Origin: a virus
Taxonomy: Duplodnaviria; Caudoviricetes
IMG/VR virus record: IMGVR_UViG_3300023174_000048
Span: 96,001 to 160,000 of that record
Length of the DNA stretch: 64,000 nt
Strand: one strand, 5' to 3'
The translations under genes were made by a program, and so were the position numbers. A model generated the notes under the pieces. It was not told the DNA's origin and did not search any database. It saw only the letters and a list, made by a program, of their open reading frames with translations. Position 1 is the first letter of the stretch; every line of letters starts with the position of its first letter. Positions 11,097 to 52,892 of this stretch are shown here, in pieces.

Positions 11097-11097
11097 A

Positions 11098-11277
11098 ATG
11101 CAAAAACAATTTCATGAACTAGCGATTGGCGATAGGTTCACAGTTAATGGTGTTGAATATATTAAAACTGAAGAAGTTAGAGTTAGCTGTTGCAGAAGTA
11201 TCAATTGTTATGCTTCTTCTGACGCTAATCAAAAAGGACATTTTCCCGGAAATACAGAAGTTACAATAAATGGCTAA
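11098..11277 (+). CDS. Unlisted 59-aa protein between the dnaE halves (MQKQFHELAIGDRFTVNGVEYIKTEEVRVSCCRSINCYASSDANQKGHFPGNTEVTING)
   Basis: Translated by hand. AAGGAG lies just upstream inside the end of dnaE-N, and the stop overlaps the next ATG at 11270. Confidence 0.75.
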   Translation: MQKQFHELAIGDRFTVNGVEYIKTEEVRVSCCRSINCYASSDANQKGHFPGNTEVTING

Positions 11278-11965: not shown

Positions 11966-11973
11966 ATTAATTA

Positions 11974-22522: not shown

Positions 22523-22567
22523 CGACAACCCTGCGTTCATCTTGGGCGCAGGTGTTGTCGTTTAATT
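22523..22567 (+). terminator. Hairpin at the convergence of the two transcription arms
   Basis: CGACAAC-CCTGCG pairs with CGCAGG-(T)-GTTGTCG and is followed by TTTAATT on the + strand. There is no U-tract for the - strand. Confidence 0.7.
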
Positions 22568-30296: not shown

Positions 30297-33200
30297 TATT
30301 TAATTGCCGTTAGTGTCCACTTTCCATTTAAGAATGTAAATATAGCTATAGCATTAGTTGTTACTGTGAATCCTAGAGGATTATCAAAATTAACGGTCAT
30401 TGTTGGAACAACTCCTGATCGTCTGCCTTGTACATAATGCATGTCTATTAGGGTCTGAGTTGCGCTAGTAATCTTACCTTTAACAATTAGAGATGGCTTG
30501 CTGACTGGCTCATAAAAACCTGTCTTTTTGTTGTATCTGCAAAGTAATTTTGTTCCTCGTGGAGCACAATATCCTGTTTTATCTTTAATATATATTAATC
30601 TTCTATACCCCTGTCGTAAAGGCTCGCTGCTAAATTCAATATCGTCAATATAACCTCTTGTAACATATGTCTCATCAAAATCTGGTTGTTTAATTAAATC
30701 TTCTTCAAGAGTAGCATATATCATTCTGTAAATATACTTCTTTTTTGCTTTTTTGTCTAAAAAGCTTTTTAGTGTGGTTATATCATTAGAGTTGGTAAGA
30801 ATATAAGGAGGATCAATCTCTTCTCCTCCGCCACCTCCGGCCCAAACCATTCTGTCTTGATCCCAAATTAGATCAATAGGACCAACTTTCCATAAGTCAG
30901 GACGCTCTGCCCAATTTAAATAAAAATCATTTAATTTAACTTTTTCTGACCACTTTCCGTTAAACTTTTGAGTTTTACTAATTATACTTCCTTTAAATCC
31001 CTGAGTATAATCAATTGGATTTCCATCTGTTGGTGGATTTCCAGGATCATATCCTCCCTCAACATCCATATTGTCTTCTATTTTAATAGTAGTTACATCA
31101 GTATTATTTATTGCTGCTGTAGTAAGTGATGACCATGATGATGGCAAATTCTCATAATTAAAAGTTTTAGAAAAAATATTGGTATTTCCGGATATGGTAA
31201 ATAGTTCGCCGACAGATAATGAGCTATATTTTTTAGTAGCCCCGCTATTAGTTAATTTAAGCTTAAATCTTTTTGGTCTACCAAAATTGTCATAGGCTAA
31301 TGGTTCATCAGCAGCATTAGGAACAGGATATCCGTCAGCATCATATCCCCAAGAGTGTAGTGTTAATGGTCCTCTTAGTCCGAAAAATCTTTGATTATTC
31401 TCGTGCAACATATTAAGAGCATCACTAGATTTATCCCTTATATGATATAAAGCTTCATCATAAGGATAATAGTCTAAATCATTGGATGGAACACCATCTG
31501 GATGATTAGTATGGGCCCTTAGATTTCTACTAGTCTCAAGCTTGTATCCCGTTTTATTTTGTGGAACTGATCCTCTCGCCACAATTTCTATACAATGGCG
31601 TAATCTGTCTCTGAAAATTCTACCCCCAGTAGTTAAGCCCCCTATATCTTCGTGTGCTCCGTCTGGATGAGCACCAGTATAGTTTTGAGAGTTAGAGTTT
31701 TTAAATTCTCCATATGGAACAACTATAGGATTTAATGTAATCAAATTAATTGGAATATCTTCATCTGTTACTATCTTAGCATTTAATTTTTCACCAGCAT
31801 TACCACACTTATCACATGTTATCTTTGTTGCTACTTCTGCTCTATCTCCATTTTCATTATATTGTACAACACTGATATCTCTAACTTTTGTGCCTCTACA
31901 AAATGGACAATTAGAGGTATTATGTAAAGAATATGAGAATGTTGAGTTCTTAAAGGTTGGATAAAAAGATACTGGAGATAATATTCCATCCAAACTCATT
32001 GCTGACTGCATTCCATAGTCTTTTGATAATTGATTTTCAAGCTCTTTTCTTTGAAATAATTGTACGGTCGATGTTACTCTTGCTATTGCTTTTAGTGACG
32101 ATACTGATGAAGCCGTCTCTAATTTGCTGCTTGATGGTTGACCAACATCTGAACTATTAACAAGAGCCCACTTGGTTGCTTTCGATGTTCGTGTATTAAA
32201 AGCTCCGGGACTACTAGATATGGAAAAATCATCAATTACTTTTGGAGTTCTTGATGGTTCATTAATAAGAGGAGAAGCCTGACCAACTAATACTGTGCTG
32301 GGACTCCAACTAAATAGTTTCGAAGACAGGTCTGAACTTCCAAATTGGGCATTATTTAATCTTTCTTGTAATATTAGATCTCTTTCTTTATTTTTTAAAT
32401 TAGTAATTTCCTGATTAATTTGAGAGATCTGTTTTCCTCTTTTCAGATTTAACCTATTAGCTCTTCTTATTCTGTCATTTTCTTCTTTATTAAATAGTCC
32501 TAATTTCCTCGTATATGTTCTGAATGAATAAGTTGTGGATATTCCCTGTTGTCCAACACTTGTTTGTATAGAGGTTATAATTGGACCATCAACAAAGTAT
32601 GATGGAGTTTTTAAGTCTAATACTTTGTATATTGCAGTAACTGTGTTTTCTGTATTAGGGGAGAAAGACATAGTTGCTCCTGGAATATATGATAAATTCA
32701 CAACAGAAGCTACGGAGTCTTTAACGTCTTTGTAACCATAACCAGATGGCGATATAATATGCAATCCTGTATTGGCTAATGCAAAATTACCACCTATATT
32801 AAATAATGGAAGTCCTGGCATATCTAATTGAGCAGTTTCTATAACGCTCTGGTAGTTCACTTTTGTTTGTATCTCTTTAAAAGCAACAATATCTAACTGA
32901 TGCATTCCTCCATAATTCCAAGGAACAAAATCATCATTAAATTCTATATTAACATTTGATATTAAATTGTTTAATGCTTTATCAACTTCTGCTTGCGTGG
33001 TTGCGCGACTTGAATATGTGCAAGTTAATGGAAACGTTGATGATTGAGTAACAAGCTGACCAGATGGGAAAATACCAGTACCCTCTAGTGCTGGATAATT
33101 AGTCCATGGTCCATAAACAAATTGATTTGATTTGATTGGAATACCGGCAAAAAAAGGATGAGCGGCTTTTGGTGCTAGCTCAACATTATTTGCAGTATGA

Positions 33201-36200
33201 TTAGATGATACGGTATATAGTCCAAGAAAATATGGATTATCACTATCGTCTAATACTATTGGACTAATATAGTTCAACATGTATCTTATCCAATCCATAT
33301 CCCAATCATCTTTTCTGGTAGTCTTTAAGTATATCATCAAGTCTTCAGCTGAAATGTTGGATATTACTGTTCTGTTAGGATCTTTAGCATTTTCTTCGCT
33401 AGATAAATTTAAATTAATTCCTGGAGAATCTATTAAGATTTTTGGATTTTCAAATCTAGTAGGATCTATATATATAAAACTTTCTTCAACTGATGTTGAT
33501 ACGTAAAGTTTTGATCTTGGCATTGATATGCCTTTTGTCATTGTCCCAGTAAGCTCTACTATCTCTGCCCCCCAAGCATCATACGATTTTACTATTGAAC
33601 CTAGAGTTAATGCTGTTGTCATACTTCCAGTAGGTACTATGCTGGTGCCAACAGTGGAGATATATTTTTGGTCAACTATAACATAGTCATTATTTGATAA
33701 AGAAGAAATATCTAATGATGGAAATATGTAGCTATCAGTACAACTTTTTGTTTTATATTCATTAAGAGTGAGCCAACTATCATAACTAAAATATGGATTT
33801 GCCTGTTCTTTTATAATGTCTTGAATTGGCGTAGTTTTATTAGCGGCCACACACTTTGCCTGTCTAATATAGTCATAATTATAATTATTGTTATAGCCCA
33901 ATAATGGCTGAATCTTACCAGTATCGTCCGTTAATGTCATCCATTGTGTTCCTCCAACAGCCATACTATCATCTATTATGTTTCCATATTCTTCCCAGGC
34001 CCCATCATTAGTTGGCGTATAATTATATCTTAAATTACCGTCTCCACTAAATATGTATCCGTATCCAACATTTGTGGGAAAAGCGAATCCGGTAACACTA
34101 TTTTCTCTATAGGTTCTTAATTGATCAGCAGACACCATGTATTTTTTGCCATAATACTTTGCAATGTCCGTAATAAATTTATGAATTATTTTTAAATCTT
34201 GCAAAGCTTTTTCTTGAATATATTGGCTACCATCATTTTTATCTGGATAAACGGCAGTTGGATATAATTCGTCTCCGGCAATATTAGGACCAAGTAATTT
34301 CCAATACCAGTCTGTTTCTTGAAAAGCAATTTTTTCAGCTTTATCAAGTTCCATACCCATATTATTCACTAGTTCATCTCGTGTTTTAATATAGTATGCT
34401 CTTCTTATTAACTCTATTAAGTCTGGCTTATATGTTTTTGCTAATGAATAAACAAGATAATTATCAAATCCTGCTATTGCTGCTCGTATCTCAGATTCTG
34501 TTAATACAAAAAATTCTACAGGGTCATAACTATTTAATATTCCAAGATTATTAAATGTTGTTGTTGGAGGATCCAGATTTGCTGTTTGAGGAAGAGCAAA
34601 GCCAGCTCCAGTTTCAAGATATGCTCGGCTAATTGGCACATTAAGCTTTGGTAATTCTGATATTCTTACTATTATAGATATTTGAGATGTCCAGGTGTCA
34701 TACCATACTGGACGTATTCTTCTAAAATCAGTATTTGCAGAATCATTGGCTCCTACCTTTAATCCAATTTTATTATCATAAACGAAACCAAAAAATGGAC
34801 ATATATTATCTAAATATAATGGAAACCATCTTCCCACAGAAGTGTCTGTTTGTGAGTATGCAATAGCATGACTATTTTTAAAGCACGGTTCATAGTTACC
34901 ATAATTAACATCAACACCGTCTAAGAGTTCATTTTTTGTATTCCATATATCATCTTTAGTACCAAAACCCTTTGAGGCAGCAGTTTGCATAGTATCTTCG
35001 TCATTAATTATGCTAACATATGCTGTCTCTAGTCTGCTTGATGTTCCAAGATAATCTGATATTTTTTTATTTCTTGAACTATTAAAGTTTGGAAATCTTA
35101 TTTTGCCGTGACCATATTGCTTAGTTGTAATAGTTGGAGCATCATTACCTATCGGCGCTCCATCAGCCAAAGAATAGTAGTTAACAAATTTTCTTGTTCT
35201 GGGATTATAAATGAAATTATTCTGAGTATATGCTAATCTATAACTTTTTACTTGGTATAATCTTTGTTGCTGTCCTCCAATAACCAAACATCTTGATGGA
35301 GTATCATTCTTTTCTTTTCCTATAGTATTTGATGATACTTGATAATTATTGCATTCTAATGATTTTATAGTATTTTCAATAAGATTTGTACTAGGTTGTT
35401 TTAGCCTTGATATTGCTTTAACTTTTATAACATGATAAAGTTTAGCACTATATACTCGTGGAATCATTTCTATGCTAAAGTCACAACCAGCTCTTTCTCC
35501 AATATCATTTAATAAATCGGTTATGCTAAGAAATGGTCCTGTGGTTCGTATATCATTTGGCAATCTTTTCTTTATTCTAGTATTATCTGTATATATAACG
35601 TCATGAAGATCTAATACAAATTGACATCTATTTGTTGAGGTAGTATCATTTGACATAGCATTTAAAGTTTGAGGATATACTACTCCAAATCTATTAAAAG
35701 CTGATGTTATTGGTTCATATAAATTACCATTATCCTCTCTTTGCATACATTTGGATATGATTCTTCCAAATGGAGAAAATGCTCTTTTTATAGCTTCGCT
35801 ACTTCTGTTAGGAGTACTTCCTTGACCTAAAACAGTATCTAATTTAAATGTGCTATCATGCGTTATTGAAGTTAACATCATTAAAGCGTCTAGAATAGAA
35901 TTTATACTAACTCCTCTATCGTCTGGTCGTGCTATTCCATAGTTTCCCTCACCGAAAGACTCTAAAAATCCATAAATGTTGAAAATATTAGGAATTGTTC
36001 CATGCTTTAAATCAGTATCACTATAATTAGCACCAAGCGATTTTAAATAATTCTTTGGACCACCATATATTGACGTAGATCCGGGGGCATCTGCTTTGCT
36101 AAAAATTGATCCAGCATATTTATCAACTATAATATAAGAAGAATTTAGAATAGCCTGTGGACCATTAATAATAACAGTATAATTTTTACCTCCGCTACCA

Positions 36201-36769
36201 ATATCTCGTGACCAAGATTGAACAAAGCCCCCAAATTGAAAATCCCCCATTTTAAAATAAACAGGAGTATCGATTATATCATACTTATATCCTGGATGAC
36301 TATCCTCAGCAACGTTTGAGTAAGTATTTTCTTCTTGTATTCTTGTTTTTCTTCCAAAAAATCCAGGATCAGGATCTTTCCAGTATTTTGATATTAATCC
36401 TTTGGTTTCTGATAATTCATAGTATACTTTTCCTGGAACTATTCTGTTTTCTATGGGAGTAGTCTCACTAGCTGCCGCCCCAGTATATTTATCAATAAAA
36501 CATCCTACTCCACTACAAAGAGTATAATGATCATCAGTATTGATAGTACCAGTGAACTGCGGATACATGCTTCCGTCATTTGGTTGGCCTGCTGTGAGAG
36601 AAGGAGACGGATCACAAGAGTAGACCAATTCATCTTCTACTAAATTAACTGTTAATTGTGATGGCTGTGTTCCCCAGCCGAAGTTGCTAGTGAAACTGGC
36701 TACACTAGCTCCTAAGAATAATGTTTGCGCAATTGGTTTATCTATATTTGAACATACTTTTGTTGGCAT
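30296..36769 (-). CDS. Large tail-tip/baseplate hub-like protein (2157 aa)
   Basis: N-terminal QTLFLGASVASFTSNFGWGTQPSQLTVNLVED; beta-rich; position in the tail module. The function is inferred. Confidence 0.5.
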   Translation of the reverse strand: MPTKVCSNIDKPIAQTLFLGASVASFTSNFGWGTQPSQLTVNLVEDELVYSCDPSPSLTAGQPNDGSMYPQFTGTINTDDHYTLCSGVGCFIDKYTGAAASETTPIENRIVPGKVYYELSETKGLISKYWKDPDPGFFGRKTRIQEENTYSNVAEDSHPGYKYDIIDTPVYFKMGDFQFGGFVQSWSRDIGSGGKNYTVIINGPQAILNSSYIIVDKYAGSIFSKADAPGSTSIYGGPKNYLKSLGANYSDTDLKHGTIPNIFNIYGFLESFGEGNYGIARPDDRGVSINSILDALMMLTSITHDSTFKLDTVLGQGSTPNRSSEAIKRAFSPFGRIISKCMQREDNGNLYEPITSAFNRFGVVYPQTLNAMSNDTTSTNRCQFVLDLHDVIYTDNTRIKKRLPNDIRTTGPFLSITDLLNDIGERAGCDFSIEMIPRVYSAKLYHVIKVKAISRLKQPSTNLIENTIKSLECNNYQVSSNTIGKEKNDTPSRCLVIGGQQQRLYQVKSYRLAYTQNNFIYNPRTRKFVNYYSLADGAPIGNDAPTITTKQYGHGKIRFPNFNSSRNKKISDYLGTSSRLETAYVSIINDEDTMQTAASKGFGTKDDIWNTKNELLDGVDVNYGNYEPCFKNSHAIAYSQTDTSVGRWFPLYLDNICPFFGFVYDNKIGLKVGANDSANTDFRRIRPVWYDTWTSQISIIVRISELPKLNVPISRAYLETGAGFALPQTANLDPPTTTFNNLGILNSYDPVEFFVLTESEIRAAIAGFDNYLVYSLAKTYKPDLIELIRRAYYIKTRDELVNNMGMELDKAEKIAFQETDWYWKLLGPNIAGDELYPTAVYPDKNDGSQYIQEKALQDLKIIHKFITDIAKYYGKKYMVSADQLRTYRENSVTGFAFPTNVGYGYIFSGDGNLRYNYTPTNDGAWEEYGNIIDDSMAVGGTQWMTLTDDTGKIQPLLGYNNNYNYDYIRQAKCVAANKTTPIQDIIKEQANPYFSYDSWLTLNEYKTKSCTDSYIFPSLDISSLSNNDYVIVDQKYISTVGTSIVPTGSMTTALTLGSIVKSYDAWGAEIVELTGTMTKGISMPRSKLYVSTSVEESFIYIDPTRFENPKILIDSPGINLNLSSEENAKDPNRTVISNISAEDLMIYLKTTRKDDWDMDWIRYMLNYISPIVLDDSDNPYFLGLYTVSSNHTANNVELAPKAAHPFFAGIPIKSNQFVYGPWTNYPALEGTGIFPSGQLVTQSSTFPLTCTYSSRATTQAEVDKALNNLISNVNIEFNDDFVPWNYGGMHQLDIVAFKEIQTKVNYQSVIETAQLDMPGLPLFNIGGNFALANTGLHIISPSGYGYKDVKDSVASVVNLSYIPGATMSFSPNTENTVTAIYKVLDLKTPSYFVDGPIITSIQTSVGQQGISTTYSFRTYTRKLGLFNKEENDRIRRANRLNLKRGKQISQINQEITNLKNKERDLILQERLNNAQFGSSDLSSKLFSWSPSTVLVGQASPLINEPSRTPKVIDDFSISSSPGAFNTRTSKATKWALVNSSDVGQPSSSKLETASSVSSLKAIARVTSTVQLFQRKELENQLSKDYGMQSAMSLDGILSPVSFYPTFKNSTFSYSLHNTSNCPFCRGTKVRDISVVQYNENGDRAEVATKITCDKCGNAGEKLNAKIVTDEDIPINLITLNPIVVPYGEFKNSNSQNYTGAHPDGAHEDIGGLTTGGRIFRDRLRHCIEIVARGSVPQNKTGYKLETSRNLRAHTNHPDGVPSNDLDYYPYDEALYHIRDKSSDALNMLHENNQRFFGLRGPLTLHSWGYDADGYPVPNAADEPLAYDNFGRPKRFKLKLTNSGATKKYSSLSVGELFTISGNTNIFSKTFNYENLPSSWSSLTTAAINNTDVTTIKIEDNMDVEGGYDPGNPPTDGNPIDYTQGFKGSIISKTQKFNGKWSEKVKLNDFYLNWAERPDLWKVGPIDLIWDQDRMVWAGGGGGEEIDPPYILTNSNDITTLKSFLDKKAKKKYIYRMIYATLEEDLIKQPDFDETYVTRGYIDDIEFSSEPLRQGYRRLIYIKDKTGYCAPRGTKLLCRYNKKTGFYEPVSKPSLIVKGKITSATQTLIDMHYVQGRRSGVVPTMTVNFDNPLGFTVTTNAIAIFTFLNGKWTLTAIK

Positions 36770-36770
36770 A

Positions 36771-38780
36771 TTAATAATCTAAATAATTTTTACTATTTGT
36801 GCATTGCTGATAAACCCATCCAATTGATTTTGAATATCTTCCATTAGTAGGATCCCATGATTGAGTATCATTGGTCACATAAACTTGTCCTTGGGCATTA
36901 TTATTATTCCTATTAAAATTAGCATTTCCGAATATGTATGAAGCCCTATCTCCAAATGGCTTTAATCCTTCAATAATTCCTGTTATAGTTTGATACACCG
37001 TTCCTCCCGTCCATAAAGGACAAGTGGTATTTTGCATAAAAAAGCCGCCCATACTAGATGGTGGAACCACTCCAACCTCGATGGTGACGCTTTTTCTTGT
37101 TGATGTTTTTGTTCCAAGATTTTGTAAAACTGGCCCTAATGATCGACCCAAAACGAAAGCTTCTCCAATAACATCTGTTGGCCCAGTTTCTTCAATACTA
37201 ACACTTTCATATAAAACACCACTTATTATTGTAAACTTATTATTAAACTCATAACTATATGATATGCTACCCTTTTTAGGATTATGTGTTTCAGAAGTTG
37301 ATATCGGTATAATATTTAATACAGAATTTCTAGAATATACTGGATTATTTGGGGGCTGTGGTGGATTAACTGCTCCTGGTATATATCCTTTTGTTCTGTC
37401 AGGACTACTCATCGGTATACAAGCTCTTCTGTACAAATATGGCTTAACTTCATTTATCCATCCACTAACAGCGTTAGCATACTTACTAGCCATTAAATTT
37501 TTAGTTACTGGTAATCCATTATCTGCTATTGCTGTATTAAATGATAAATTATCTAACAGTCCGGTAGATGAACTTAAATCAAATTTTAAAGGACTTCCAC
37601 TACCACTAACATATGGAAGTCCAGTAATTGCTGGATTACTAATACTTAATCCTATAATTTCTCCTTGAACTCTAACAGTATGAATATATTTATCGTCAGT
37701 GCTCATTTCTAATGAATAATCTTCAATAAAAGTTATTCCTGTTGGCATGGCTAACCAAGTATCAGTTATCTCATATCTGGCAGCATGAACATCAAAATTG
37801 GTGGATCTTAGATGATTATAAAAATATCCATCGGTTCCTCCTATTCCTCTCGTTAGCATTGGTGACCATAAAACGTTATCTGTTTTTTTATCAAAAATAG
37901 CAGATGATCGTTCCATCACCCATTTTTTAGCATTATTAAATGCTGATACTGCTAATGGTGGATATCTGTCAAAATCTATTTTATTTTGTTCATTTATTGG
38001 CAAAGTACTTTTACAAAATCCTGTTCCAGAAGGTATTCCTACGGCACTAATTGTTCTAGAAACTTTAAATTGAGGAATACTTAGATAATTAATATCAACT
38101 GGTGCTACTGCTGTTCCTCCAGTATTTGTTTGGTTCGATTTGGGTTCTCCAGCAGTATTTGTTGGAGCTGTTGGCTTTAATTGAGGATTATCATACTCTG
38201 TTTTTTGTATTACATTAATAGTTCCTTTACTGTAAATATAGTCTTCTAATGGTTCTATGCTCCAACTATCACTATAATCTTTAACATACCAACCACTGTA
38301 TGCCGGTTCCAAATATTCCAATACCGCCGTATAATCTGCGGTAAATATCCAATTATCATTACTCTTGTTAACATCAAAACTAACTAATCTAACACCACCA
38401 GCGCTAAATATGCTAGTTTCTACAGCGTTTGGTGCTGATTTGCATGTTATATCAAAACTTCCACAAGTATTTATTTTGAATATTTGATTTAATCCACTAA
38501 TTGCTGACATCATTGGACCGATGCCACTACCATTAGGTGATGCTTCTTTAGTAATAGTAACTTTACCAGTTAATGTTATTCTGTTGGTAAAAACCATAGG
38601 TTCTCCTGCTTCGTTTCTTTCAACAGAAGTGGAGAAATCAATGAATGGAGTTGGTCCAGCAACAGTGTGGATACCGCTACCGTTGAAATATACTCCAACA
38701 GCATTAGTAGGACCAAGAGCTTGTATAGTAGCAAAATCTTGTGTAGAATTTAGAGCTTCTAATGAATAAACCATAATCAA
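36771..38780 (-). CDS. Putative distal-tail/baseplate protein (669 aa)
   Basis: Beta-rich repeats of the YSxSxE...SxTISAxG type, directly upstream of the hub-like gene. Function from synteny only. Confidence 0.4.
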   Translation of the reverse strand: MIMVYSLEALNSTQDFATIQALGPTNAVGVYFNGSGIHTVAGPTPFIDFSTSVERNEAGEPMVFTNRITLTGKVTITKEASPNGSGIGPMMSAISGLNQIFKINTCGSFDITCKSAPNAVETSIFSAGGVRLVSFDVNKSNDNWIFTADYTAVLEYLEPAYSGWYVKDYSDSWSIEPLEDYIYSKGTINVIQKTEYDNPQLKPTAPTNTAGEPKSNQTNTGGTAVAPVDINYLSIPQFKVSRTISAVGIPSGTGFCKSTLPINEQNKIDFDRYPPLAVSAFNNAKKWVMERSSAIFDKKTDNVLWSPMLTRGIGGTDGYFYNHLRSTNFDVHAARYEITDTWLAMPTGITFIEDYSLEMSTDDKYIHTVRVQGEIIGLSISNPAITGLPYVSGSGSPLKFDLSSSTGLLDNLSFNTAIADNGLPVTKNLMASKYANAVSGWINEVKPYLYRRACIPMSSPDRTKGYIPGAVNPPQPPNNPVYSRNSVLNIIPISTSETHNPKKGSISYSYEFNNKFTIISGVLYESVSIEETGPTDVIGEAFVLGRSLGPVLQNLGTKTSTRKSVTIEVGVVPPSSMGGFFMQNTTCPLWTGGTVYQTITGIIEGLKPFGDRASYIFGNANFNRNNNNAQGQVYVTNDTQSWDPTNGRYSKSIGWVYQQCTNSKNYLDY

Positions 38781-38798: not shown

Positions 38799-41700
38799 TT
38801 ATGCTATATCAAACCAATTGTGAGAGTATCCTGTTCTCTGACTAAATCCAGCCCCATTCGTTACCAGTACAACGCTACTATTAGCAATTGTGATAATAAT
38901 TCTATTTCTATCTCCTCCATCTGTATAAGTCCACACTTTAAATATGGGACTAAGTAATCCATAATTCGGAATTACTCGATTCCAAGAGACCTTATTGTTT
39001 ATTGATTCATATACGTTTCCATCAGTTGTTGTGATAATATATCTCCCACTACTGCTAGTAGTCACATATATTCCATATCCGTATATTATTTTGTCTACAT
39101 TAAACATACTATTTTGTGTAGATGATGTTATAACACTCCAATATATTCCGTTACTACTGGTCATCACATTCATTCCTGCTCCATATTGTCTATTTCCTAT
39201 TATTATAAACTCATTATTAAGATATTCTAATGACGAACAAGGCACAATTTGTCCACTAAATGATCTTACTGTCCATGTTAATCCATCCGGAGATGTTGCA
39301 CAGGAGCCTGAGTTGTCTGTAGCAGCAACAATGATGTTGGCCCCATAAGCAATTCCTTTCCAATTAGCATAAGCTGGTAATGTAGAATAAGTAACATCTT
39401 TAACATTCCCATTTTGAAATTTAATTATAGCAACTTGAGAACTAGTATTTGATGTTAATATAAAGTTGTTATTAATAGGATCATATGTAGAATTAATCCA
39501 CAAGGCGCTAGTACTCGGTATCTCATTTGATATATCATATGATTGCCAAGTCATACCATTATCAGTAGAATAATTAATTATATAACTAGTATATGCTGCA
39601 GCAATAAATACTCCATTACCATAACAGATTGTTGTCCAATTTTGATTATCTGGTAAGTCCTTTAAAACAAAAGAATTACCATAGGTTTGAGATACCATAG
39701 CCTTGTTATTATTGTATGCTACAGCAACAGCATTAGCTTGAGGTATGGCACTAGTTGCTGTTGGAGTTATGGTTACTGTTGGAGTGGTGGTTGTTGTTAT
39801 AGTAGGAGTGATTGTTGGAGTTTGTGTTGATGTTATACTCGGTGTTATTGAAACTGTTGGCGTTATTGTTCTGGTTGGAGTAGCCGTGGCAGTTACACTA
39901 ATAGTAGGAGTAACTGTTATTGTTGGGGTAGTTGTAACAGTGTTTGTTATGCTTGGGGTTATAGTAATTGTTGGACTAACACTAGCTGTTGGAGTCGCAG
40001 TATTCGTGGAAGTTATTGTTGGCGTTGTTGTTCTAGTTGGAGTAGCAGTAGCAGTTGTACTACTAGTAGGGGTAACTGTTATTGTTGGACTAATACTAAT
40101 TGTTGGAGTCGCAGTATTCGTGGAAGTTATTGTTGGGGTGCTTGTTGGCGTATTTGTTACGCTTGGCGTGATTGTATTAGTAGGAGTAATTGATGGAGTA
40201 TTTGTCGTCGTTATAGATGGTGTGGGACTATTAGTTGAAGTTACTGTATTGGTAGGAGTTACTGTTTTCGTTGGTGTTGTAGTTAACGTAACACTCGGCG
40301 TTATGGTATTGGTAGCGGTATTACTTGGTGTTATAGTGCTTGTGTTCGTTTTAGTAGGGGTTATACTATTAGTTGGCGTATTGCTAGGTGTTGTTGTGGG
40401 TGTTTTTGTTTGTGTTGGGGTAGGGGTCAGAGTAGTAGACTGAGCAACAAAAGAGAACTCCCTCTCTGCTCCGTCATAAATAACCTCACCATTATTATTC
40501 AGTCTACCGGCTGCTGCTTTAAATGTATAGGTTCTTCCATTCACCATCCTTAATCTAACATCATTATAGTTTAGTGTTATGCTACCATTAGCATTTATGC
40601 CATCATAATCATCACTAAAATTAAGACTATCACAAGTTAAATAATAGCCACCAAAAATTGAGTTAGAGGGTATTGTTGGGGAGACAAAATTAATTGTAAA
40701 AGATTGTGCCGACGTTGTAACTGATACAGTTGGTTGCCCTATTGGTGAACCAATATTTAAAACAGGAACAGTCAAGCTAGCAGATCCAATTGTTCCACAA
40801 TTTGTTAGATTATTATCACAAGCACTAACATAAAAAGTTACAGTACTACCAGCAGATGGAAAAGTATTAGCTTCATAATAGCTTAAAACACTGTTGTTTG
40901 CAGTAATACCCTCATCTCCAATTCCAGGAACACTAGACTCTACTCTATAATTAATTGGTCCTGTGCTTGTTGATAATATATTTAAGTTTTCTGGATAATT
41001 CCAGGAAATACTAAAAGATGGCTGATTATTAGTAATAATAGTTTGTACAACAATGTTCGTAGGAGCAGTTGCTGGAAGATTAGCTGTTGATAATGATATT
41101 GATTGATTTAATAATGAAATATTAGGCAATAATTTACCATCAAAAAACAATCCTTTATATAAAGCTTGTATATTATCGTTAATAAAAACACTATTTTGAT
41201 AAATTAATTGTCCAAGATTTACCGGACTGCACATTGATTTGCTTGGAGTAACTGTTGGAGTAGATGTTTTAGTCGGGGTTGGAGTCTTAGTATTTGTTGG
41301 TGTTTTTGTCGGGGTTCTAGAATTAGTTACAGAAATTGTTGGAGTTATAGTAGGAGTAGATGTGTTTGTTGATGACGGCGTTTTAGTTTTAGTTACACTC
41401 GGAGTTACAGTTCTAGTAGGAGTTACTGTTAATGTACTTGTTTTTGTTGGTGTTTGAGTAACAGAACCTGTAGGAGTTTTTGTTAAAGAAACTGATGGAG
41501 TAACAGTATTTGATGGAGTAAGTGTCTGGGTTGGAGTTGGAGTTGGAGTGATACATCCAAGATTCGTTGGTCCATTAGCCACACCAGTTACTGAGTCTGC
41601 AGTTACTGATGTTGGAACAGAATCGCTTTTTGTAGAATAAGTCCAATAACCAGCTCCAGTTCCACCCTTATTTGGATCATAATAAGCAGCTTTATACCAT

Positions 41701-42470
41701 TCGTTCTCTGTTGGTATCCAGTAAGAGTTACTATTATTCTTTGATGGCTTACTAGTTCCTTGTATTATAAAACCAGATAAAGAATACACTCCATCCTCTG
41801 TAGTTGAGTTGGATGGAACTCCTGTTGGTTTCCCATTACTTAGCCAGTTCACATATCTTGCAACACAAAACCAATTTATAAAATTAACTGGTTTATCTCC
41901 CATGTTTGCAAGAGAAGCATAAGAATATGATCCTGAAATTCCTGATCTAGAAATGCCTCCTCTTTGTGCAATATCTCCCATTTGAGAAACCCACAAAGAT
42001 AAGCTGTTAGAAGATATTGCTACTGCATTTAAAAATTCAACATATTCATTATTAGTTATTAGATATTTTTTAATTTGATAAGTATAGCTCACAGATCCAA
42101 GATTATTATTAGAAGAGTCAGAACTATTATTTGTGTTATTAATTAAAACATAGTTCTGTGAGTCTATGCTTGCCGAACTTTTTGCTATTCTAAAACCCAA
42201 ATCACTTCTTTTAGAGTCAAAGAAGTTAATATCAGCATAAGTCTTTTTTAAAGAATCTCCATTGCTAGCAAATGATCCACCTCTAAAAATTGGATAGCTA
42301 TTACTTATAGTATCTAAAAGCTCATTAACATTTCCGCTTTGATCATATGTTCCGTAGTAACTAGGTTGTCCATTTGATCCTACAGAAGTAATATTACCAG
42401 TTAAAGCATTCCATGATGCTGAATTATTATAATTAGCGGTATTACAATTATTTAATAAATAACTCATCAC
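38799..42470 (-). CDS. Fibre/adhesin-like protein: permuted FGE-sulfatase (C-type lectin fold) domain, two Thr/Pro stalks, Ig/FN3-like region, Asp-box beta-propeller
   Basis: YGTYDQSGNV, RGGSF, GFRIA, KYLITNNEY, PTENEWYKAAYY; (TPT)n tracts; STDNGMTW, SPDGLTW, SSNGIYW. Confidence 0.8.
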   Translation of the reverse strand: MMSYLLNNCNTANYNNSASWNALTGNITSVGSNGQPSYYGTYDQSGNVNELLDTISNSYPIFRGGSFASNGDSLKKTYADINFFDSKRSDLGFRIAKSSASIDSQNYVLINNTNNSSDSSNNNLGSVSYTYQIKKYLITNNEYVEFLNAVAISSNSLSLWVSQMGDIAQRGGISRSGISGSYSYASLANMGDKPVNFINWFCVARYVNWLSNGKPTGVPSNSTTEDGVYSLSGFIIQGTSKPSKNNSNSYWIPTENEWYKAAYYDPNKGGTGAGYWTYSTKSDSVPTSVTADSVTGVANGPTNLGCITPTPTPTQTLTPSNTVTPSVSLTKTPTGSVTQTPTKTSTLTVTPTRTVTPSVTKTKTPSSTNTSTPTITPTISVTNSRTPTKTPTNTKTPTPTKTSTPTVTPSKSMCSPVNLGQLIYQNSVFINDNIQALYKGLFFDGKLLPNISLLNQSISLSTANLPATAPTNIVVQTIITNNQPSFSISWNYPENLNILSTSTGPINYRVESSVPGIGDEGITANNSVLSYYEANTFPSAGSTVTFYVSACDNNLTNCGTIGSASLTVPVLNIGSPIGQPTVSVTTSAQSFTINFVSPTIPSNSIFGGYYLTCDSLNFSDDYDGINANGSITLNYNDVRLRMVNGRTYTFKAAAGRLNNNGEVIYDGAEREFSFVAQSTTLTPTPTQTKTPTTTPSNTPTNSITPTKTNTSTITPSNTATNTITPSVTLTTTPTKTVTPTNTVTSTNSPTPSITTTNTPSITPTNTITPSVTNTPTSTPTITSTNTATPTISISPTITVTPTSSTTATATPTRTTTPTITSTNTATPTASVSPTITITPSITNTVTTTPTITVTPTISVTATATPTRTITPTVSITPSITSTQTPTITPTITTTTTPTVTITPTATSAIPQANAVAVAYNNNKAMVSQTYGNSFVLKDLPDNQNWTTICYGNGVFIAAAYTSYIINYSTDNGMTWQSYDISNEIPSTSALWINSTYDPINNNFILTSNTSSQVAIIKFQNGNVKDVTYSTLPAYANWKGIAYGANIIVAATDNSGSCATSPDGLTWTVRSFSGQIVPCSSLEYLNNEFIIIGNRQYGAGMNVMTSSNGIYWSVITSSTQNSMFNVDKIIYGYGIYVTTSSSGRYIITTTDGNVYESINNKVSWNRVIPNYGLLSPIFKVWTYTDGGDRNRIIITIANSSVVLVTNGAGFSQRTGYSHNWFDIA
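39750..40440 (-). repeat. Thr/Pro-rich low-complexity coding repeat (second stalk) containing a 56-nt duplication
   Basis: 39967-40022 and 40081-40136 match at 53/56 nt, with a period of 114 nt. Confidence 0.9.
41240..41550 (-). repeat. Thr/Pro-rich low-complexity coding repeat (first stalk)
   Basis: ITPTPTPTQTLTPSNTVTPS...TPTVTPS. Confidence 0.9.
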
Positions 42471-42487
42471 GTTTCCTTATAGGGCTA

Positions 42488-43987
42488 TCAACAACTTGTA
42501 GTTCCGCCACATTGAACCGTTAATGTGTCAGTAGCAGTTTCTCCTGATGTTAAATTAGTAGTAATAACCCTTAATGCTCTTGTGTTGCTGTCAGATAAAT
42601 CTGAAGTTAAGCGAGTACCAAAGGTTATATTTCCATTAATGTCAGTAACGGCTATGCCGCTAATTGGTAAAGTACTGATTTTCCCATCACTGATTGTTGG
42701 TATAAATTCATATCTGTATGCTTGAGCCGGTGAGCCAACAATAGTAGCCGTTAGGTCTCTTGTTCCGGTGCAACAAGGATAACTCAAACTTAGTAACGGA
42801 GCATTAGTAAATCCTACAGAGTATTTATCGAGACAATTAGAACAAATAATAGTAGACTCTGAGCTAGATACTTTAGAATTATTACAGTCTTGAGTTAGCT
42901 CCATCTTTAATTTGCATATTTTTTCTAATCTAGCAACACCATAAGATAATAATGTATTTATTGAATATGGCTCAACCCCAATAGTGTTTTGTGGACATAA
43001 CCCTGTTGATGCACAAAACGACAGTCTAACAGATACTGTTTGGTTATCGCTAGTTGGTACAATAACTCCACTATTTGGATATAAAACAATTGGCCAATTA
43101 GCATCAGAAGTAAAAAATCTATAACTATACTTTTCTCCAGCCTTAAGATTTGAAAGAGTAGCAGATACTGTTGTTTTGCTAGTTGTGGAACTGGTCAGAG
43201 TAACAGAGTTTGGTAGTGAAACTGTTGGTTTTGTTAAACAATTATCACAAACTATTGAAAAAGAAGTTTGAGTTTTTGTTTGCAAAGCACTAATATCGAT
43301 AGGAGTAATAGTTAGCTTAATTTTACCATAAAGTTCATCTCCAGCATAACACTGGTTAGACTGTTGATACTTTAGAATATCGCTTTGTGATTTCTGACAA
43401 TTATCTGATGAATTGCAAAAAGAAGCTAAGGAGCTAAGAATATATGTTTCTTTTGTTGATTGTATTGTGCCAGATGATGGCAGAATACTAATGGGCCAAT
43501 TGCCATCAATTCCTTCAAACTTATATGTATATTCCTGATTTGGAATTAATCCACTAATAGTTATTGGTATATTGTTAGCATTTTTAGTACTAGCATTAAG
43601 AGTAACATCAGGAGCTGATATATCTATATTGGGTAAACAGGTGTCACATTCTACTAAACATGAACGACTATAAACAACGTTATTATTATTAGAGTTGGTG
43701 ATAACTAGGTCTAAAACAGTATATAATGTTGTATTATCAACAGACAATGTTGTTTGTTTAAGATTAGTTGTTGGAATGTTATAAAACACACTAGGGTCAC
43801 TTGGTGAGCATGAAGCGGCACTCGGACAAAAGTATGCATAAGAATTTAGTTGTGGAGGATAAAAAACTCCTGAACGAGGCATAATTTTTACTGGCCAATT
43901 CCCGCCTCTATTATTAAAAATAAAGTTATATTGTTCTTTATCATCTAATCCGTCCACAGATACATCTATAAGCTTGATTGTTGACAT
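42488..43987 (-). CDS. Virion protein built from about 4 Cys-patterned beta-sandwich-like repeats
   Basis: The unit L...Y.Y.F....NWP....P.SG...FC.....C...C..CL recurs. Confidence 0.65.
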   Translation of the reverse strand: MSTIKLIDVSVDGLDDKEQYNFIFNNRGGNWPVKIMPRSGVFYPPQLNSYAYFCPSAASCSPSDPSVFYNIPTTNLKQTTLSVDNTTLYTVLDLVITNSNNNNVVYSRSCLVECDTCLPNIDISAPDVTLNASTKNANNIPITISGLIPNQEYTYKFEGIDGNWPISILPSSGTIQSTKETYILSSLASFCNSSDNCQKSQSDILKYQQSNQCYAGDELYGKIKLTITPIDISALQTKTQTSFSIVCDNCLTKPTVSLPNSVTLTSSTTSKTTVSATLSNLKAGEKYSYRFFTSDANWPIVLYPNSGVIVPTSDNQTVSVRLSFCASTGLCPQNTIGVEPYSINTLLSYGVARLEKICKLKMELTQDCNNSKVSSSESTIICSNCLDKYSVGFTNAPLLSLSYPCCTGTRDLTATIVGSPAQAYRYEFIPTISDGKISTLPISGIAVTDINGNITFGTRLTSDLSDSNTRALRVITTNLTSGETATDTLTVQCGGTTSC

Positions 43988-44004
43988 TACATTATACCTT
44001 TTAT

Positions 44005-45222
44005 TTATGAGTCTTGTATATTTTTTATATCTACAGATGAATTTATCGAGCTTGGTGCCGAATAATTCTTACATGTTAACTTTAAAACATTACTATAGTG
44101 AATAATAGTAGGATAATCTTGATCAGTTAAAGATGCTCTTAATGTTATCGAAGGTCTATACCACGACTGTTTAGTTACGTTATTATTTTGAGAAACGTAT
44201 GTCAAAACGTTATTAGTATTACTAGGATACTGTTCTGTTGACGGGCAAAATACACCGTCTATTTTTATTGAATCTGTTGCTGAAGTAATTTTTATTAGTC
44301 CTGTTGGATGAGAAACATAATAAGGCCATGTTGCAGATAGTGACTCTATTGAATATCTATATGTTTTATTTTTACTAAAATTTGTCAAATTAACAGATAG
44401 TGTTTCTTTTTGGTTCTTGACTCTGTCATCCTCATTAGTAATACTAGAAGATATTATAGCTTGTGGCAAACAATCTATACACTTTATAGTAAACTCATTA
44501 CTTAATACAGAGTCTCCATCATATGATTGTGGCGTTAATTCAAGTTGTAATATTATGTGCTTATCATTTAAGTTAGAAACTAAACATGAAACAGGAATAT
44601 TATATTCTATATTTGATACGTTACAGTTCTGGGTTGTTGGAGATAGAGTCAGTATTGATTGTATTGATCCAGAAGTTGAGGTGGATCTTAATGTTCCACT
44701 AATAGGGGTTATATTGGCTGGCCAATTACTATTAATGGTATTGAATTTATATGAATATGTTTCATTAATCTGTAAATTATCGGCATTAATATTTAAAAAA
44801 CTACTATTGCCTGTCCTTGTATTTAAATCGACTGAATCAATACTAACTCTTGGTAATATATCGGGATCAGCAAAATTGGTTACTGTTCCACCTAATACTG
44901 GTATGCTAAGTGGCAGAAATGATGTGTCTCTAACAATAAAATAATATGATAGTTTAGAGTCTAGATATTCTAATGTTGAATCGGGGTGTGGAATATAAGT
45001 ATATTTTGTATTTCCTAATTCGTCAGTGGTTTCTGTTAGTTTTGTCCAAAATTTTAATATTTTACCATTAATGTCCTGACTACTATAAATACTCCCGATT
45101 GACTGAATAAATCTATCATATATAATCTTGTCTGTTGTAGACAAATTTTGTGGTTTAGTTTTTAATGGTAGTTGTGCTTTGCCATTATAGTGTGTAATAA
45201 AAAATTGGCTATTTATAATCAT
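44005..45222 (-). CDS. Virion protein with two copies of the same repeat as 42488-43987
   Basis: NETYSYKFNTINSNWPANITPISG...CIDCLP and KTYRYSIESLSATWPYYVSHPTG. Confidence 0.65.
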   Translation of the reverse strand: MIINSQFFITHYNGKAQLPLKTKPQNLSTTDKIIYDRFIQSIGSIYSSQDINGKILKFWTKLTETTDELGNTKYTYIPHPDSTLEYLDSKLSYYFIVRDTSFLPLSIPVLGGTVTNFADPDILPRVSIDSVDLNTRTGNSSFLNINADNLQINETYSYKFNTINSNWPANITPISGTLRSTSTSGSIQSILTLSPTTQNCNVSNIEYNIPVSCLVSNLNDKHIILQLELTPQSYDGDSVLSNEFTIKCIDCLPQAIISSSITNEDDRVKNQKETLSVNLTNFSKNKTYRYSIESLSATWPYYVSHPTGLIKITSATDSIKIDGVFCPSTEQYPSNTNNVLTYVSQNNNVTKQSWYRPSITLRASLTDQDYPTIIHYSNVLKLTCKNYSAPSSINSSVDIKNIQDS

Positions 45223-49436: not shown

Positions 49437-52400
49437 TTAATTAAACCATCCAGGACCATTATTATTTGTATCACACCACCAAGGAATCTCATTATATGAT
49501 AGAGTGTTATCGGAACATAGCGAGATAGTATCTTCATCTAATCTTAATGGCTTAGCATTAAATGAACAACCAGCAGATATGCAACTCGCAACAGAGCCAA
49601 AAACAGAAGCATAAGGATTATTATATTGGGTTAATAGATTTATTGATGGAGATACTGTGGTTGTCCCTTGTGATGTAGGAGTATCTACCACTACTGGATC
49701 AGTTAACCCTGTAAAACTTTTTGCAGATCGTATGGTTCCGTCACCAACAACAATATGGTCAACATATAACCACCCACTAACACTAAGATTAGCATATAAT
49801 TTTGCTGCCGAACCTGTGATATCAATACCTGTAGCTATAATTTCTGGCTCACTACGCTTAATACTTACGGTAGATGTTCCTGTAAAATCGTTAGAATTAA
49901 CAGGACGATAGTAGGCTGCCTTATGCCATTCATTAAGATTGGGCAACCAATACTTTCTATACGATGACTTAACAACATTATAAGAATTACTTCCTATACT
50001 ATATATTGTATATGCTCCGACGCTTAAATTATAATCAATATCAGACTCACTTAGCGTAATACTTGCTCCATTATGTAGCCAATTAATGAATTTAATAGCA
50101 CTCAAGTAGCTAACAAAAACTACTGGTTTATCACCCATATTTGACTTTGTACTATACTCATATCCAGCATTACTAATACGAGTAATTCCTCCTTGAGCAT
50201 TACTACTCATTCTAATGTCATATAGTTCACGATCATTAATTTTTGCTACTGCATTTAAAAATGCACAGTATTGTGTATTTGTTACTTCGTATTTACCAAT
50301 ACGATAAATATTATTTACAACACCAAGATTATTAATAACTTGTTGAGAATAAACTGTTGGAGATCCTGCTGGGTTTTTAATATAAATAGGATTTAAATCT
50401 TCTATATTTTTAGGATTATTAACTCCAACAAAAGACATATTAAGACCATTTGTACTAGAGATATAAGTCTGGTCTGTTATACCTTGTAGACTAGCAATTC
50501 TAAACCCAACATAATTATATCCTGACGCTCTAATTAAGGACTCAATACTTTTTAAAACATTAGATCCTATTATGCTGTCATTTGCTGTAGAATAAGCTCC
50601 TCCCGCAATAAATTCTATACTATCTCTAGATTCTATTGCGTCTTGTTTTTCTATCCATTCAGCAGCATTACCGTTCTGATCGTATGTTCCATAGTAAGAC
50701 GGCAATCCATTAGTGCCCACACTAGACAATAATCCAGAAAAAATATTTCTACTATTATCATATGCGTAATTTGCAGATGAATACTGGTTTGATAATCCTA
50801 CTCCTGTAATATTAATTATTGTAGAAAACATATCCGAACGACCCGTGGCAAAACCCGAATAGATTCCAGAAGGTATTAATATTCTTCCTGTATTTGCTTT
50901 AATGAATAATGCTGGATCATCTCCAAGTCCATATACTGAGAAATTAATATCTTTTTGACCAGCATTAAATGTTGTATCTACTAATGGTCTAATGCTTAAA
51001 GTATTAGAAGATGAATTTGAAATTATTCCATCATCAACACTCTTAGTCATTGTTAAATATCCACCCTTAGTTATGGAGTAAATATTAACATTTGATGTTG
51101 TATTTTGTACGATACTTTCATCAACTAAAAGTCCAACAATAGCATTGCCATTTAACTCTAAACTAATAACTCTTCTATATAAATTAGATCCATTATATGA
51201 TATTACTATTTGGTCTCCAGGAGCAAACTCATCAGAAGGAACACTATCTGCGAAAGTAATTTGTCTTAAGCAAGCTGTTGCTGTTCGTGGAGAATATTTC
51301 GTCCAGACTATGTCTCTCTCAGTTAAGAAATAGTCATCTAGAGTATATATTCCAGTAATTGCTCCGTTTGCTGTTGTGCTCAATAATTTATTTGCTGGAA
51401 CAGGAATTCTTAATGATCCTGCTGAGTCAATACTGAGTGGACTATTAATTATTTTGCCACCAGAAACCATCAATAATCCGCTAGACCCTAAATTACTAAT
51501 GGTTATATTAGACGCATCAATATTTTGTGAAGATATGTTTGTTAAATATGATGTCCCTGTGGCATATAATGAGGCAGACGAGAATGTTATGGATGATTGT
51601 GGACTAACTGTTATTTGACTGCTACCATTAGTTAATAGTAGATTACCATTATTATTAATCTGTAATCTATTTCCACTATATCCAACATATGTAGAATCTA
51701 CTGTTGTTTGTATTGTTTTTATTCCTGTGACACCAGAAACTACTGTGATATCTAATGAGCCCTTTTCTCCATAAACTGTTGTATTGACTGCTCGTGATTC
51801 TATCTGGGCATAATTTGTTTGATTGCCTGTAGAGTTTTTAGCAGAAAGGTTGATCTGGGAAACTACGCTTCCACTAGTGATGTCTGTGGATGGTTTATGA
51901 TAAAGTGTTATATTTGCTGGATAACAAGATGTTCTATTCTCTAGTCTTAGACCCTCTTGACAAACCGTATTAACAATATGAAATACTGTTGATGGTCGTG
52001 AGCCTGAGGGAATGTTGATTCCTACTCTTCCGTCATAAGAAAAAAATAAATTTTTATTTAATGATCCACTTCCATAAACTATAAAATCACTACCATTACT
52101 ATTGTTATTAACAACAAATGGATATGTGCCGCTGGTCGGTATGATAGTATCTGCGGATGATGCTGAATTTGCTCCGATAAATACTCTTTGAGACCCTGAG
52201 TCCCAATACATTTCTGCATTATTGATGTCTGCACTCATTATAGAAAAAGTATCAGAATCATTATTTAATGACTGTACGCCCATTCTTTCTGGTGTCTTAT
52301 TATTTAGTACTACCCAATCCTTCCCTGTTGACGCCAATCTTGCATAATTATTAAACGAATCTAGTGTGCATACTAGCGAACCATCCTTATCATTTATAAA

Positions 52401-52892
52401 TAATGGGTTTGATGATTCTATTAGTTTTAATTCAATAATAATATTGTTTGACTGGTCTAATGATGGAAGATTAATACTGATAGATTTTGAAGAGCAGTCT
52501 ACAAGATACAAGGCGCTTATAGGATCTAAAGATAAATCTTTATCAATAACGATTGTGTTGTTTAGTCCTTTGTCAAAAGAACTTTGATTAGCAAATACAT
52601 AAAAATCATTACCAGAAGATGGAAAATCTACTGTATTGTTATTATTAGACGATGAAATAGTCTCAATTCTTTTAACAACAATATTACCAATATTATCAAA
52701 TACTATTTCTCCAACACCAGTTTCAAATAGGCGACTATTTAAGTTTCTGGCTATGTAAGGAATTAAATATCCTACATGATTGGTATTAAGAATATTATAT
52801 GTTTTTATAGCAGATACTGGCTTAATACCGTCATTTTCTATAACGAAATTAAATCCAATATTATCAAATACTCTTATTAGTTTGTTTGACAT
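49437..52892 (-). CDS. Tail fibre-like protein with a second permuted FGE-sulfatase domain
   Basis: SYYGTYDQNGNAAEW, GFRIA, YRIGKYEVTNTQYCAFLNAVA and YWLPNLNEWHKAAYY. Confidence 0.8.
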   Translation of the reverse strand: MSNKLIRVFDNIGFNFVIENDGIKPVSAIKTYNILNTNHVGYLIPYIARNLNSRLFETGVGEIVFDNIGNIVVKRIETISSSNNNNTVDFPSSGNDFYVFANQSSFDKGLNNTIVIDKDLSLDPISALYLVDCSSKSISINLPSLDQSNNIIIELKLIESSNPLFINDKDGSLVCTLDSFNNYARLASTGKDWVVLNNKTPERMGVQSLNNDSDTFSIMSADINNAEMYWDSGSQRVFIGANSASSADTIIPTSGTYPFVVNNNSNGSDFIVYGSGSLNKNLFFSYDGRVGINIPSGSRPSTVFHIVNTVCQEGLRLENRTSCYPANITLYHKPSTDITSGSVVSQINLSAKNSTGNQTNYAQIESRAVNTTVYGEKGSLDITVVSGVTGIKTIQTTVDSTYVGYSGNRLQINNNGNLLLTNGSSQITVSPQSSITFSSASLYATGTSYLTNISSQNIDASNITISNLGSSGLLMVSGGKIINSPLSIDSAGSLRIPVPANKLLSTTANGAITGIYTLDDYFLTERDIVWTKYSPRTATACLRQITFADSVPSDEFAPGDQIVISYNGSNLYRRVISLELNGNAIVGLLVDESIVQNTTSNVNIYSITKGGYLTMTKSVDDGIISNSSSNTLSIRPLVDTTFNAGQKDINFSVYGLGDDPALFIKANTGRILIPSGIYSGFATGRSDMFSTIINITGVGLSNQYSSANYAYDNSRNIFSGLLSSVGTNGLPSYYGTYDQNGNAAEWIEKQDAIESRDSIEFIAGGAYSTANDSIIGSNVLKSIESLIRASGYNYVGFRIASLQGITDQTYISSTNGLNMSFVGVNNPKNIEDLNPIYIKNPAGSPTVYSQQVINNLGVVNNIYRIGKYEVTNTQYCAFLNAVAKINDRELYDIRMSSNAQGGITRISNAGYEYSTKSNMGDKPVVFVSYLSAIKFINWLHNGASITLSESDIDYNLSVGAYTIYSIGSNSYNVVKSSYRKYWLPNLNEWHKAAYYRPVNSNDFTGTSTVSIKRSEPEIIATGIDITGSAAKLYANLSVSGWLYVDHIVVGDGTIRSAKSFTGLTDPVVVDTPTSQGTTTVSPSINLLTQYNNPYASVFGSVASCISAGCSFNAKPLRLDEDTISLCSDNTLSYNEIPWWCDTNNNGPGWFN

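Follow-up and report, generated by a model that had tools for sequence, protein, structure and literature searches.

A probable circular permutant of the FGE-sulfatase (C-type-lectin-like) fold in a putative tail adhesin of a large uncultured phage

The fold shared by formylglycine-generating enzyme (FGE) domains and C-type lectins (CLec) is a classic hypervariable ligand-binding scaffold in phages and bacteria, as in Mtd and TvpA, which are targets of diversity-generating retroelements (DGRs). Mtd of Bordetella phage BPP-1 (Protein Data Bank, PDB, 1yu0) is a phage receptor-binding protein whose DGR-driven CLec domain has the canonical order of its two halves and stands at the C-terminus of a trimeric fibre, while TvpA of Treponema denticola (2y3c) is a DGR-diversified bacterial lipoprotein with a non-enzymatic FGE-type CLec fold, canonical N-to-C order and variable binding loops in its GNV...GFR part. 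FGE itself (FGE/SUMF1, 1y1e), a copper oxidase with a copper-binding cysteine pair between the RGGS and GFR motifs, and its solved relatives pFGE/SUMF2 (1y4j) and CarF (5aoh) have the same fold, also in canonical order. The subject of this report is a 1223-residue open reading frame (ORF; P0001) on the minus strand of a 64,000-nucleotide window from a virus of the class Caudoviricetes (IMG/VR record IMGVR_UViG_3300023174_000048, positions 96,001 to 160,000), the N-terminal domain of which carries the two halves of this fold in the opposite, C-to-N order. Residues 5-298 are very probably a genuine circular permutant of the FGE-sulfatase (CLec-like) fold that forms one domain, probably a non-catalytic binding module.

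Compared with these systems, the permuted domain is like TvpA in being of the non-enzymatic FGE-type CLec fold and in having its variable loops in the GNV...GFR part (TvpA chain residues 186-292 are matched by the family profile with query residues 8-98), and it differs from TvpA in its C-to-N order and in lying in a phage tail gene. With Mtd it would share a phage receptor-binding protein as its setting, although no sequence similarity between the two is detectable, and unlike FGE it has no cysteine pair. Its closest relatives in sequence are secreted or PEP-CTERM FGE-sulfatase domains of Planctomycetota and Verrucomicrobiota, which among the best 80 loci are 33-48% identical (tblastn), share the motifs FLNAVA, GGI, NWLHNG, EWYKAAYY and YGTxDQxGNV with the permuted unit, and superpose as ESM Atlas models on the permuted model with a root mean square deviation (rmsd) of ~2 Angstrom over 180-190 residues; they differ from it in that all 87 complete units in those loci are canonical and none is permuted. 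The parts of the domain and the gene that carries it are as follows.

38799..42470, minus strand: the 1223-residue ORF (P0001), a putative tail adhesin or fibre in a block of tail genes.
41577..42458, minus strand: permuted FGE-sulfatase/CLec-fold domain, residues 5-298, from the AlphaFold2 (AF2) model and the profile match of the doubled sequence.
42177..42446, minus strand: first half, residues 9-98, equivalent to the canonical C-terminal half (ANY ... YGTYDQxGNV ... RGGS ... GFR), from Pfam, the canonical-unit profile and superposition.
42153..42176, minus strand: eight-residue connector, residues 99-106, from the old C-terminus (GFRIA) to the old N-terminus (YVLINN), defined as the gap between the profile matches.
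41574..42152, minus strand: second half, residues 107-299, equivalent to the canonical N-terminal half (KYxVTNxEY, KPVxxVxW, IPTENEWYKAAYY), from Pfam, the canonical-unit profile and superposition.

The original prediction, which proposed a circular permutation with the cut just before ANY, had placed the motifs correctly, since the translation has ANY at residues 12-14, YGTYDQSGNVNE at 39-50, RGGSF at 63-67 and GFRIA at 92-96, followed by the second-half motifs KYLITNNEY at 135-143, KPVNFINW at 193-200 and IPTENEWYKAAYY at 252-264. The Pfam FGE-sulfatase profile PF03781 matches the ORF in two stretches with 46 bits (E 6.8e-12), above its gathering cut-off of 23.3 bits and without the colinear order of halves that a typical member has. 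Scanned apart, residues 21-97 fall on profile positions 159-255 and residues 130-275 on positions 36-131, which are the two partial matches in reversed order that such a cut had been predicted to give. A canonical profile of 282 positions, built from 80 canonical-order units of close relatives, is matched by residues 9-98 at positions 188-280 (70.7 bits, independent E-value 8e-24) and by residues 107-299 at positions 3-192 (223.6 bits, independent E-value 2e-70), and by these scores the reversed-order matches lie far beyond chance. The two pieces are complementary with nothing left out, overlapping by only 5 profile positions. In-silico doubling is the standard test for circular permutation, and when residues 1-300 were doubled and matched to the canonical profile they gave one colinear match over positions 3-280 with 292.8 bits, approximately the sum of both parts. 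A profile of the permuted family likewise aligned in reversed order, by sequence, with the solved proteins pFGE (1y4j) and CarF (5aoh), its matches to the halves of these two and of FGE/SUMF1 (1y1e) having E-values of 1e-11 to 1e-5. The old C-terminus, at GFRIA (residues 92-96), is thereby joined to the old N-terminus, at YVLINN (residues 107-112), through about eight residues, and the new chain ends of the permuted domain correspond to the long loop found ahead of ANY in domains of canonical order.

Structure prediction points to a single compact domain. AF2 modelling of residues 1-300 with an alignment of 87 permuted units gave a mean predicted local distance difference test score (pLDDT) of 94.7 and a predicted template modelling score (pTM) of 0.93 over all 300 residues, values that describe one rigid body, and from the single sequence the pLDDT was 29. 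The model agrees with the original prediction, in that the halves are predicted to form a single domain and not two incomplete ones, with strands on either side of the connector. Structural relatives were sought with VIA-align on the list returned by Foldseek and on 48,161 PDB representatives, among which chains with Z of at least 3.5 were of the FGE/CLec fold only, the unrelated chains below this value being short local matches. Each solved relative matches either model residues 100-298 with its N-terminal part or model residues 6-102 with its C-terminal part. The former superpose on CarF (5aoh) residues 5-177 (Z 6.3, 144 aligned), over model residues 100-296 on TvpA (2y3c) chain residues 52-239 (Z 6.0-6.1, 146-148 residues), and on the N-terminal parts of PorK, pFGE, PvdO and CalU17; the latter superpose on EgtB-IV (8vig) residues 334-442 (Z 5.8, rmsd 2.3, 85 aligned, 31% identity), Mtd (1yu0) residues 155-380 (Z 4.0, 86 aligned) and TaqVP (5vf4) residues 134-381 (Z 3.3). 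Foldseek searches of the PDB also returned FGE-fold chains only (TM ~0.24). Among solved chains, BFVD models and ESM Atlas representatives, none covered the whole permuted domain colinearly, all matches being half-length, as expected of sequential structure aligners that are given a permutant. The predicted model has the three-dimensional FGE/CLec fold, with each half matching its counterpart.

It is unlikely that the two halves instead pair across chains, the C-type half of one subunit completing the N-type half of another in an oligomeric fibre head. Phage fibres are usually oligomers, and a half order that could not fold colinearly in the canonical way might favour such a swap, but in the AF2 model, with its high pTM given above, the two halves make up one compact monomeric domain, the connector of only 8 residues joins strands that are neighbours in the canonical fold, which is the textbook geometry of an intramolecular permutant, and the tight C-to-N spacing is kept across the family.

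That family is large. A HMMER search with residues 1-300 on 1.84 billion representatives yielded 6725 proteins with E <=1e-3, including 1541 with E <=1e-30, and the order of the halves was mapped on the best 150 of the 6725. The C-type half came first in 69 proteins, 64 of which also ended in an N-type half, and in these proteins the C-to-N gap was tight (median 6 residues) and the N-to-C gap loose (median 60, up to 495). The N-type half came first in 83 proteins, with the C-type half last in 57 of them, a tight N-to-C gap (median ~0 residues) and a loose C-to-N gap (median 13 residues). Two architectures thus coexist at about 40% identity, canonical units that often form tandem arrays and permuted units. 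Full-length colinear matches to the canonical profile were obtained for 85 of 87 permuted units after doubling, and the unit boundaries are kept in about 85 permuted units from 50%-identity cluster representatives. A second permuted unit is present in the window itself.

49863..50807, minus strand: paralogous permuted unit, residues 696-1010 of the 1151-residue ORF 49437..52892 (P0002), from BLASTP, Pfam and the canonical profile.

This unit is colinear with residues 1-300 of P0001 (33% identity, E 4e-39, BLASTP), and its C-type half (residues 704-802) and N-type half (residues 853-1001) are reversed by both Pfam and the canonical profile. Its ORF (49437-52892, minus strand) lies directly downstream of a giant ORF of 3594+ residues and has a long N-terminal part without a Pfam match. 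Within their proteins, 34 of 84 permuted units are N-terminal, 30 internal and 20 C-terminal, a spread that speaks against the original suggestion that the purpose of the swap is to allow the chain to continue into a Thr/Pro stalk; canonical-order domains, too, occur in tandem arrays with more chain after them. From these sequence comparisons, the permuted FGE unit appears to be a recurring family and a portable module and not an accident, being present in two tail genes of this phage and among the tail genes of many other uncultured phages.

The gene itself seems intact. The likely true start of the 1223-residue ORF is ATG 42467, the second codon of the listed GTG ORF, with a TAA 9 nucleotides upstream, two codons after which the frame opens, and with an AAGGA Shine-Dalgarno sequence at 42474-42478, 6 nucleotides before the ATG. 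A 95%-identical database protein begins at the Met of this codon. The start appears to be sound and to leave no room upstream for an exon-like piece. When all six frames of the window were scanned with the family profile, FGE-like sequence was detected in two ORFs only, those of 1223 and 1151 residues, and no orphan FGE half was detected elsewhere in the window or upstream of the 1223-residue ORF. These features make it highly improbable that the domain is a decayed remnant, that is, two incomplete half-domains left by a broken tandem array or by a frameshifted or mis-assembled gene and functionless as a unit. Canonical tandem arrays are common in relatives and the trimming of one yields exactly the C-N order, but the halves are exactly complementary (overlap of at most 5 profile positions), their boundaries are kept not only in the cluster representatives but also in 90 IMG/VR ORFs, the 33%-identical paralogue has the same order, the ORF has a stop and a Shine-Dalgarno sequence ahead of its ATG, with no orphan half in the window, and confidence in the AF2 model is high.

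The residues that characterise enzymes of this fold are missing. Residues 1-300 contain no histidine and only two cysteines, at positions 9 and 202, of which Cys9, before the ANY motif, is the sole cysteine of the first half, and none falls in residues 63-96. The catalytic cysteine pair of FGE/SUMF1 proper is thus absent from residues 1-300, as are the iron-binding histidines and the full-length equivalog match of the sulfoxide synthases EgtB, OvoA and SenA, the NCBIfam EgtB model TIGR03440 scoring 28 bits against a cut-off of 360. The permuted domain is therefore most likely a non-catalytic ligand-binding module of a tail adhesin. A 95%-identical homologue (P0003, JGI/IMG) is named 'formylglycine-generating enzyme required for sulfatase activity', a name probably given in error to a non-catalytic binding domain. 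That the domain is an enzyme of the FGE/EgtB/OvoA type, as this automatic name has it and as the Pfam FGE-sulfatase match and the weak EgtB match might suggest, is very doubtful given the missing cysteine pair between RGGS and GFR, the missing histidines, the setting among phage tail genes in a protein that also has linkers and a propeller-like domain, and nearest solved relatives that include the non-enzymatic TvpA, pFGE and PorK.

Variation within the family, measured as column entropy over 87 permuted units, is concentrated in two loops of the first half.

42291..42320, minus strand: variable loop 1, residues 51-60.
42201..42260, minus strand: variable loop 2, residues 71-90, between RGGS and GFR, equivalent to DGR variable regions.

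Loop 1 has a mean entropy of 2.83 bits with 2.1 inserted residues per sequence and loop 2 has 2.94-3.43 bits, the maximum of the domain, while the motifs that flank them are nearly invariant. The proposal that the RGGS...GFR stretch corresponds to the face diversified in DGR-targeted CLec folds was borne out to the extent that no other part of the domain varies as much across the family and that this stretch superposes on the C-terminal regions of Mtd and TaqVP in which their variable regions lie. A ligand on the host surface would be bound by the hypervariable loops of the GNV...GFR segment, so that the domain may act in lectin-like binding with its specificity set by residues 51-60 and 71-90, and it would be carried by a tail adhesin, flexible and Thr/Pro-linked, in a large uncultured phage.

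The loops do not appear to be diversified by a DGR in this phage. The fold is the classic DGR target and the loops correspond to DGR variable regions, but it is most improbable that the domain is such a target with its variable region relocated by the permutation, because the nearest IMG/VR record (G001, 131 kb, 95% complete, 99% amino acid identity for the 1223-residue gene) has no RVT_1 match that would indicate a DGR reverse transcriptase, blastn of both C-type halves against the window gives no template-like repeat and only the paralogue's conserved 32 bp, and in 76 related viral loci all repeats of the C-type half are paralogous copies whose mismatches involve all four bases without A bias. 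Ordinary divergence and the exchange of modules seem to account for the variation of the loops.

The distribution of the two architectures was compared in 76 viral loci from IMG/VR and in the best 80 bacterial loci from GTDB species genomes, the latter from a scan seeded with one peptide pattern, and in both scans the matches were ranked by how closely they resembled the permuted query. The viral loci contained 104 matched ORF pieces, 90 with tight C-to-N units and 2 with full canonical units, whereas the bacterial loci contained 97 matched ORF pieces, none with tight C-to-N units and 87 with full canonical units. Identity to the query reaches 62% in the viral matches and is 33-48% in the bacterial loci, which come mainly from metagenome-assembled genomes of Planctomycetota and Verrucomicrobiota and have the canonical order, often in tandem arrays. 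Given the ranking of both scans, permuted bacterial copies, if common, should have topped the list, and restriction of the permuted unit to phages is supported by this comparison but not proven, as the bacterial scan was seeded by one pattern and covered the best 80 loci.

In a tree of the re-ordered units (84 permuted and 81 canonical), with the junction columns removed, one split (support 0.89) separates all 84 permuted units and 6 of the 81 canonical units from the rest. One seemingly permuted unit in the canonical clade, P0067, proved to be an N-terminally truncated fragment of a canonical array. The permuted order is likely to have had one or a few origins, and its likely route is permutation by duplication, in which the trimming of a tandem N-C-N-C array, on one or a few occasions, would have left a C-N unit that would then have spread among phages. 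A neutral origin of this kind, by the trimming of a tandem array, is sufficient to explain the permutation.

A fuller account, in which the units form an undescribed and largely phage-restricted family of hundreds to thousands of members, derived from tandem-array domains of the PVC (Planctomycetes-Verrucomicrobia-Chlamydiae) type by one or a few duplication-trimming events and acting as the principal exchangeable module for receptor binding across a large clade of uncultured phages with big genomes, is held with a confidence only somewhat better than even. Several points weigh against the account given here of the permutant, its function and its history. The binding function, the ligand and the location in the virion are all inferred; the one-domain claim depends on the confidence of the AF2 prediction together with half-by-half matches; and the contrast between phages and bacteria comes from pattern-seeded scans, with the best 80 loci on the bacterial side. 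In the tree, 6 canonical units are nested among the permuted ones, whose largest pure group has 35 members, and since the permuted units thus form no pure clade, a single origin is not shown. No adaptive or functional reason for the permutation was found.

As to novelty, neither Pfam nor NCBIfam nor PHROGs has a dedicated model for the permuted unit, and no permuted FGE/CLec domain was found in Pfam, NCBIfam or the papers and preprints, which were incompletely covered, so that there is weak evidence for the original claim of an undescribed architecture. The unit is apparently an undescribed, widespread variant of a known fold and not a new kind of system.

The remainder of the 1223-residue ORF and its surroundings fit a tail adhesin. 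Downstream of the permuted domain the protein is laid out as follows.

41226..41558, minus strand: first Thr/Pro-rich linker, ~residues 305-415 (~110 residues), from the translation and a composition scan.
39729..40457, minus strand: second Thr/Pro-rich linker, ~residues 672-914 (~240 residues), from the translation and a composition scan.
38802..39698, minus strand: C-terminal region, ~residues 925-1223, possibly a BNR/DUF6242-like beta-propeller, a lead only from an ESM Atlas feature search.

The middle region of the ORF matches an uncharacterised PHROG. The C-terminal ~300 residues have an ESM Atlas feature score of 0.95 to sialidase/BNR/DUF6242_C clusters, many of them viral, and are possibly a beta-propeller of this type, a lead that no profile match backs, Pfam BNR giving only E 0.25 on the ORF. 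The two linkers (39729-40457 and 41226-41558) contain hardly any tandem repeat at the DNA level, Tandem Repeats Finder reporting two short arrays near 39754-39817.

A neighbouring 829-residue ORF matches 'minor tail protein' PHROGs, and the slot of the 1223-residue gene in the tail module is kept in four related contigs (L004, L005, L163 and L164). Its order is fn3-like proteins, then the permuted-unit protein (414, 495, 614 or 944 residues there and 1223 here), then a protein of 550-700 residues, one of ~1900-2200 residues and, in three of the four contigs, a last one of ~2600-2750 residues; in L005 a 4982-residue PhageMin_Tail protein lies upstream of the slot. A constant slot with a protein of variable length and unit position is typical of exchangeable adsorption proteins. 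As judged from these neighbours, the gene lies in a tail morphogenesis module, as expected of a tail fibre or receptor-binding protein, which is the role that its product would have.

The two ORFs upstream of P0001 (499 and 405 residues, 42488-45222, minus strand) have weak matches to fn3 and Pur_ac_phosph_N-like domains, and an fn3-type gene likewise precedes the permuted-domain gene in L004, L163 and L164. The largest ORF of the window, of more than 3594 residues, runs off its end and is syntenic with the 4982-residue, tape-measure-like PhageMin_Tail protein of L005; this ORF and those of 2576, 2157 and 669 residues (22566-38780 and 52896-63998, minus strand) have no Pfam match at E <=1e-3. 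The very large minus-strand genes of the window form a block after the replication genes on the plus strand, which encode an intein-containing RecA, DnaB, primase and a split DnaE. The RecA-like gene (910-2964, plus strand) has a LAGLIDADG/Hom_end homing-endonuclease domain at residues 265-353, probably an intein, and the DNA polymerase III alpha subunit (9228-13599, plus strand) is divided between 9228-11096, with the PHP domain and polymerase core, and 11974-13599, with the finger, HHH and OB domains, a DnaQ-like RNase_T exonuclease ORF (11270-11965, plus strand) lying between the two. A tblastn search of GenBank phages with residues 1-300 gave no match and the closest DnaE of a cultured phage is only ~35% identical, so this large phage appears to have no cultured relative.

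Profile libraries register the rotated form as two weak partial matches and label it 'formylglycine-generating enzyme', and the receptor-binding modules of many uncultured phages may therefore be misannotated or missed, which a dedicated profile model would mend. The family offers a natural case of permutation by duplication in which the precursors, canonical tandem arrays, and the products, permuted units, are both still abundant and share ~40% identity, and a binding scaffold with differently placed termini could aid the design of phage receptor-binding proteins. If the proposed permutation is correct, it shifts the hypervariable binding loops from the end of the chain to its front or interior.

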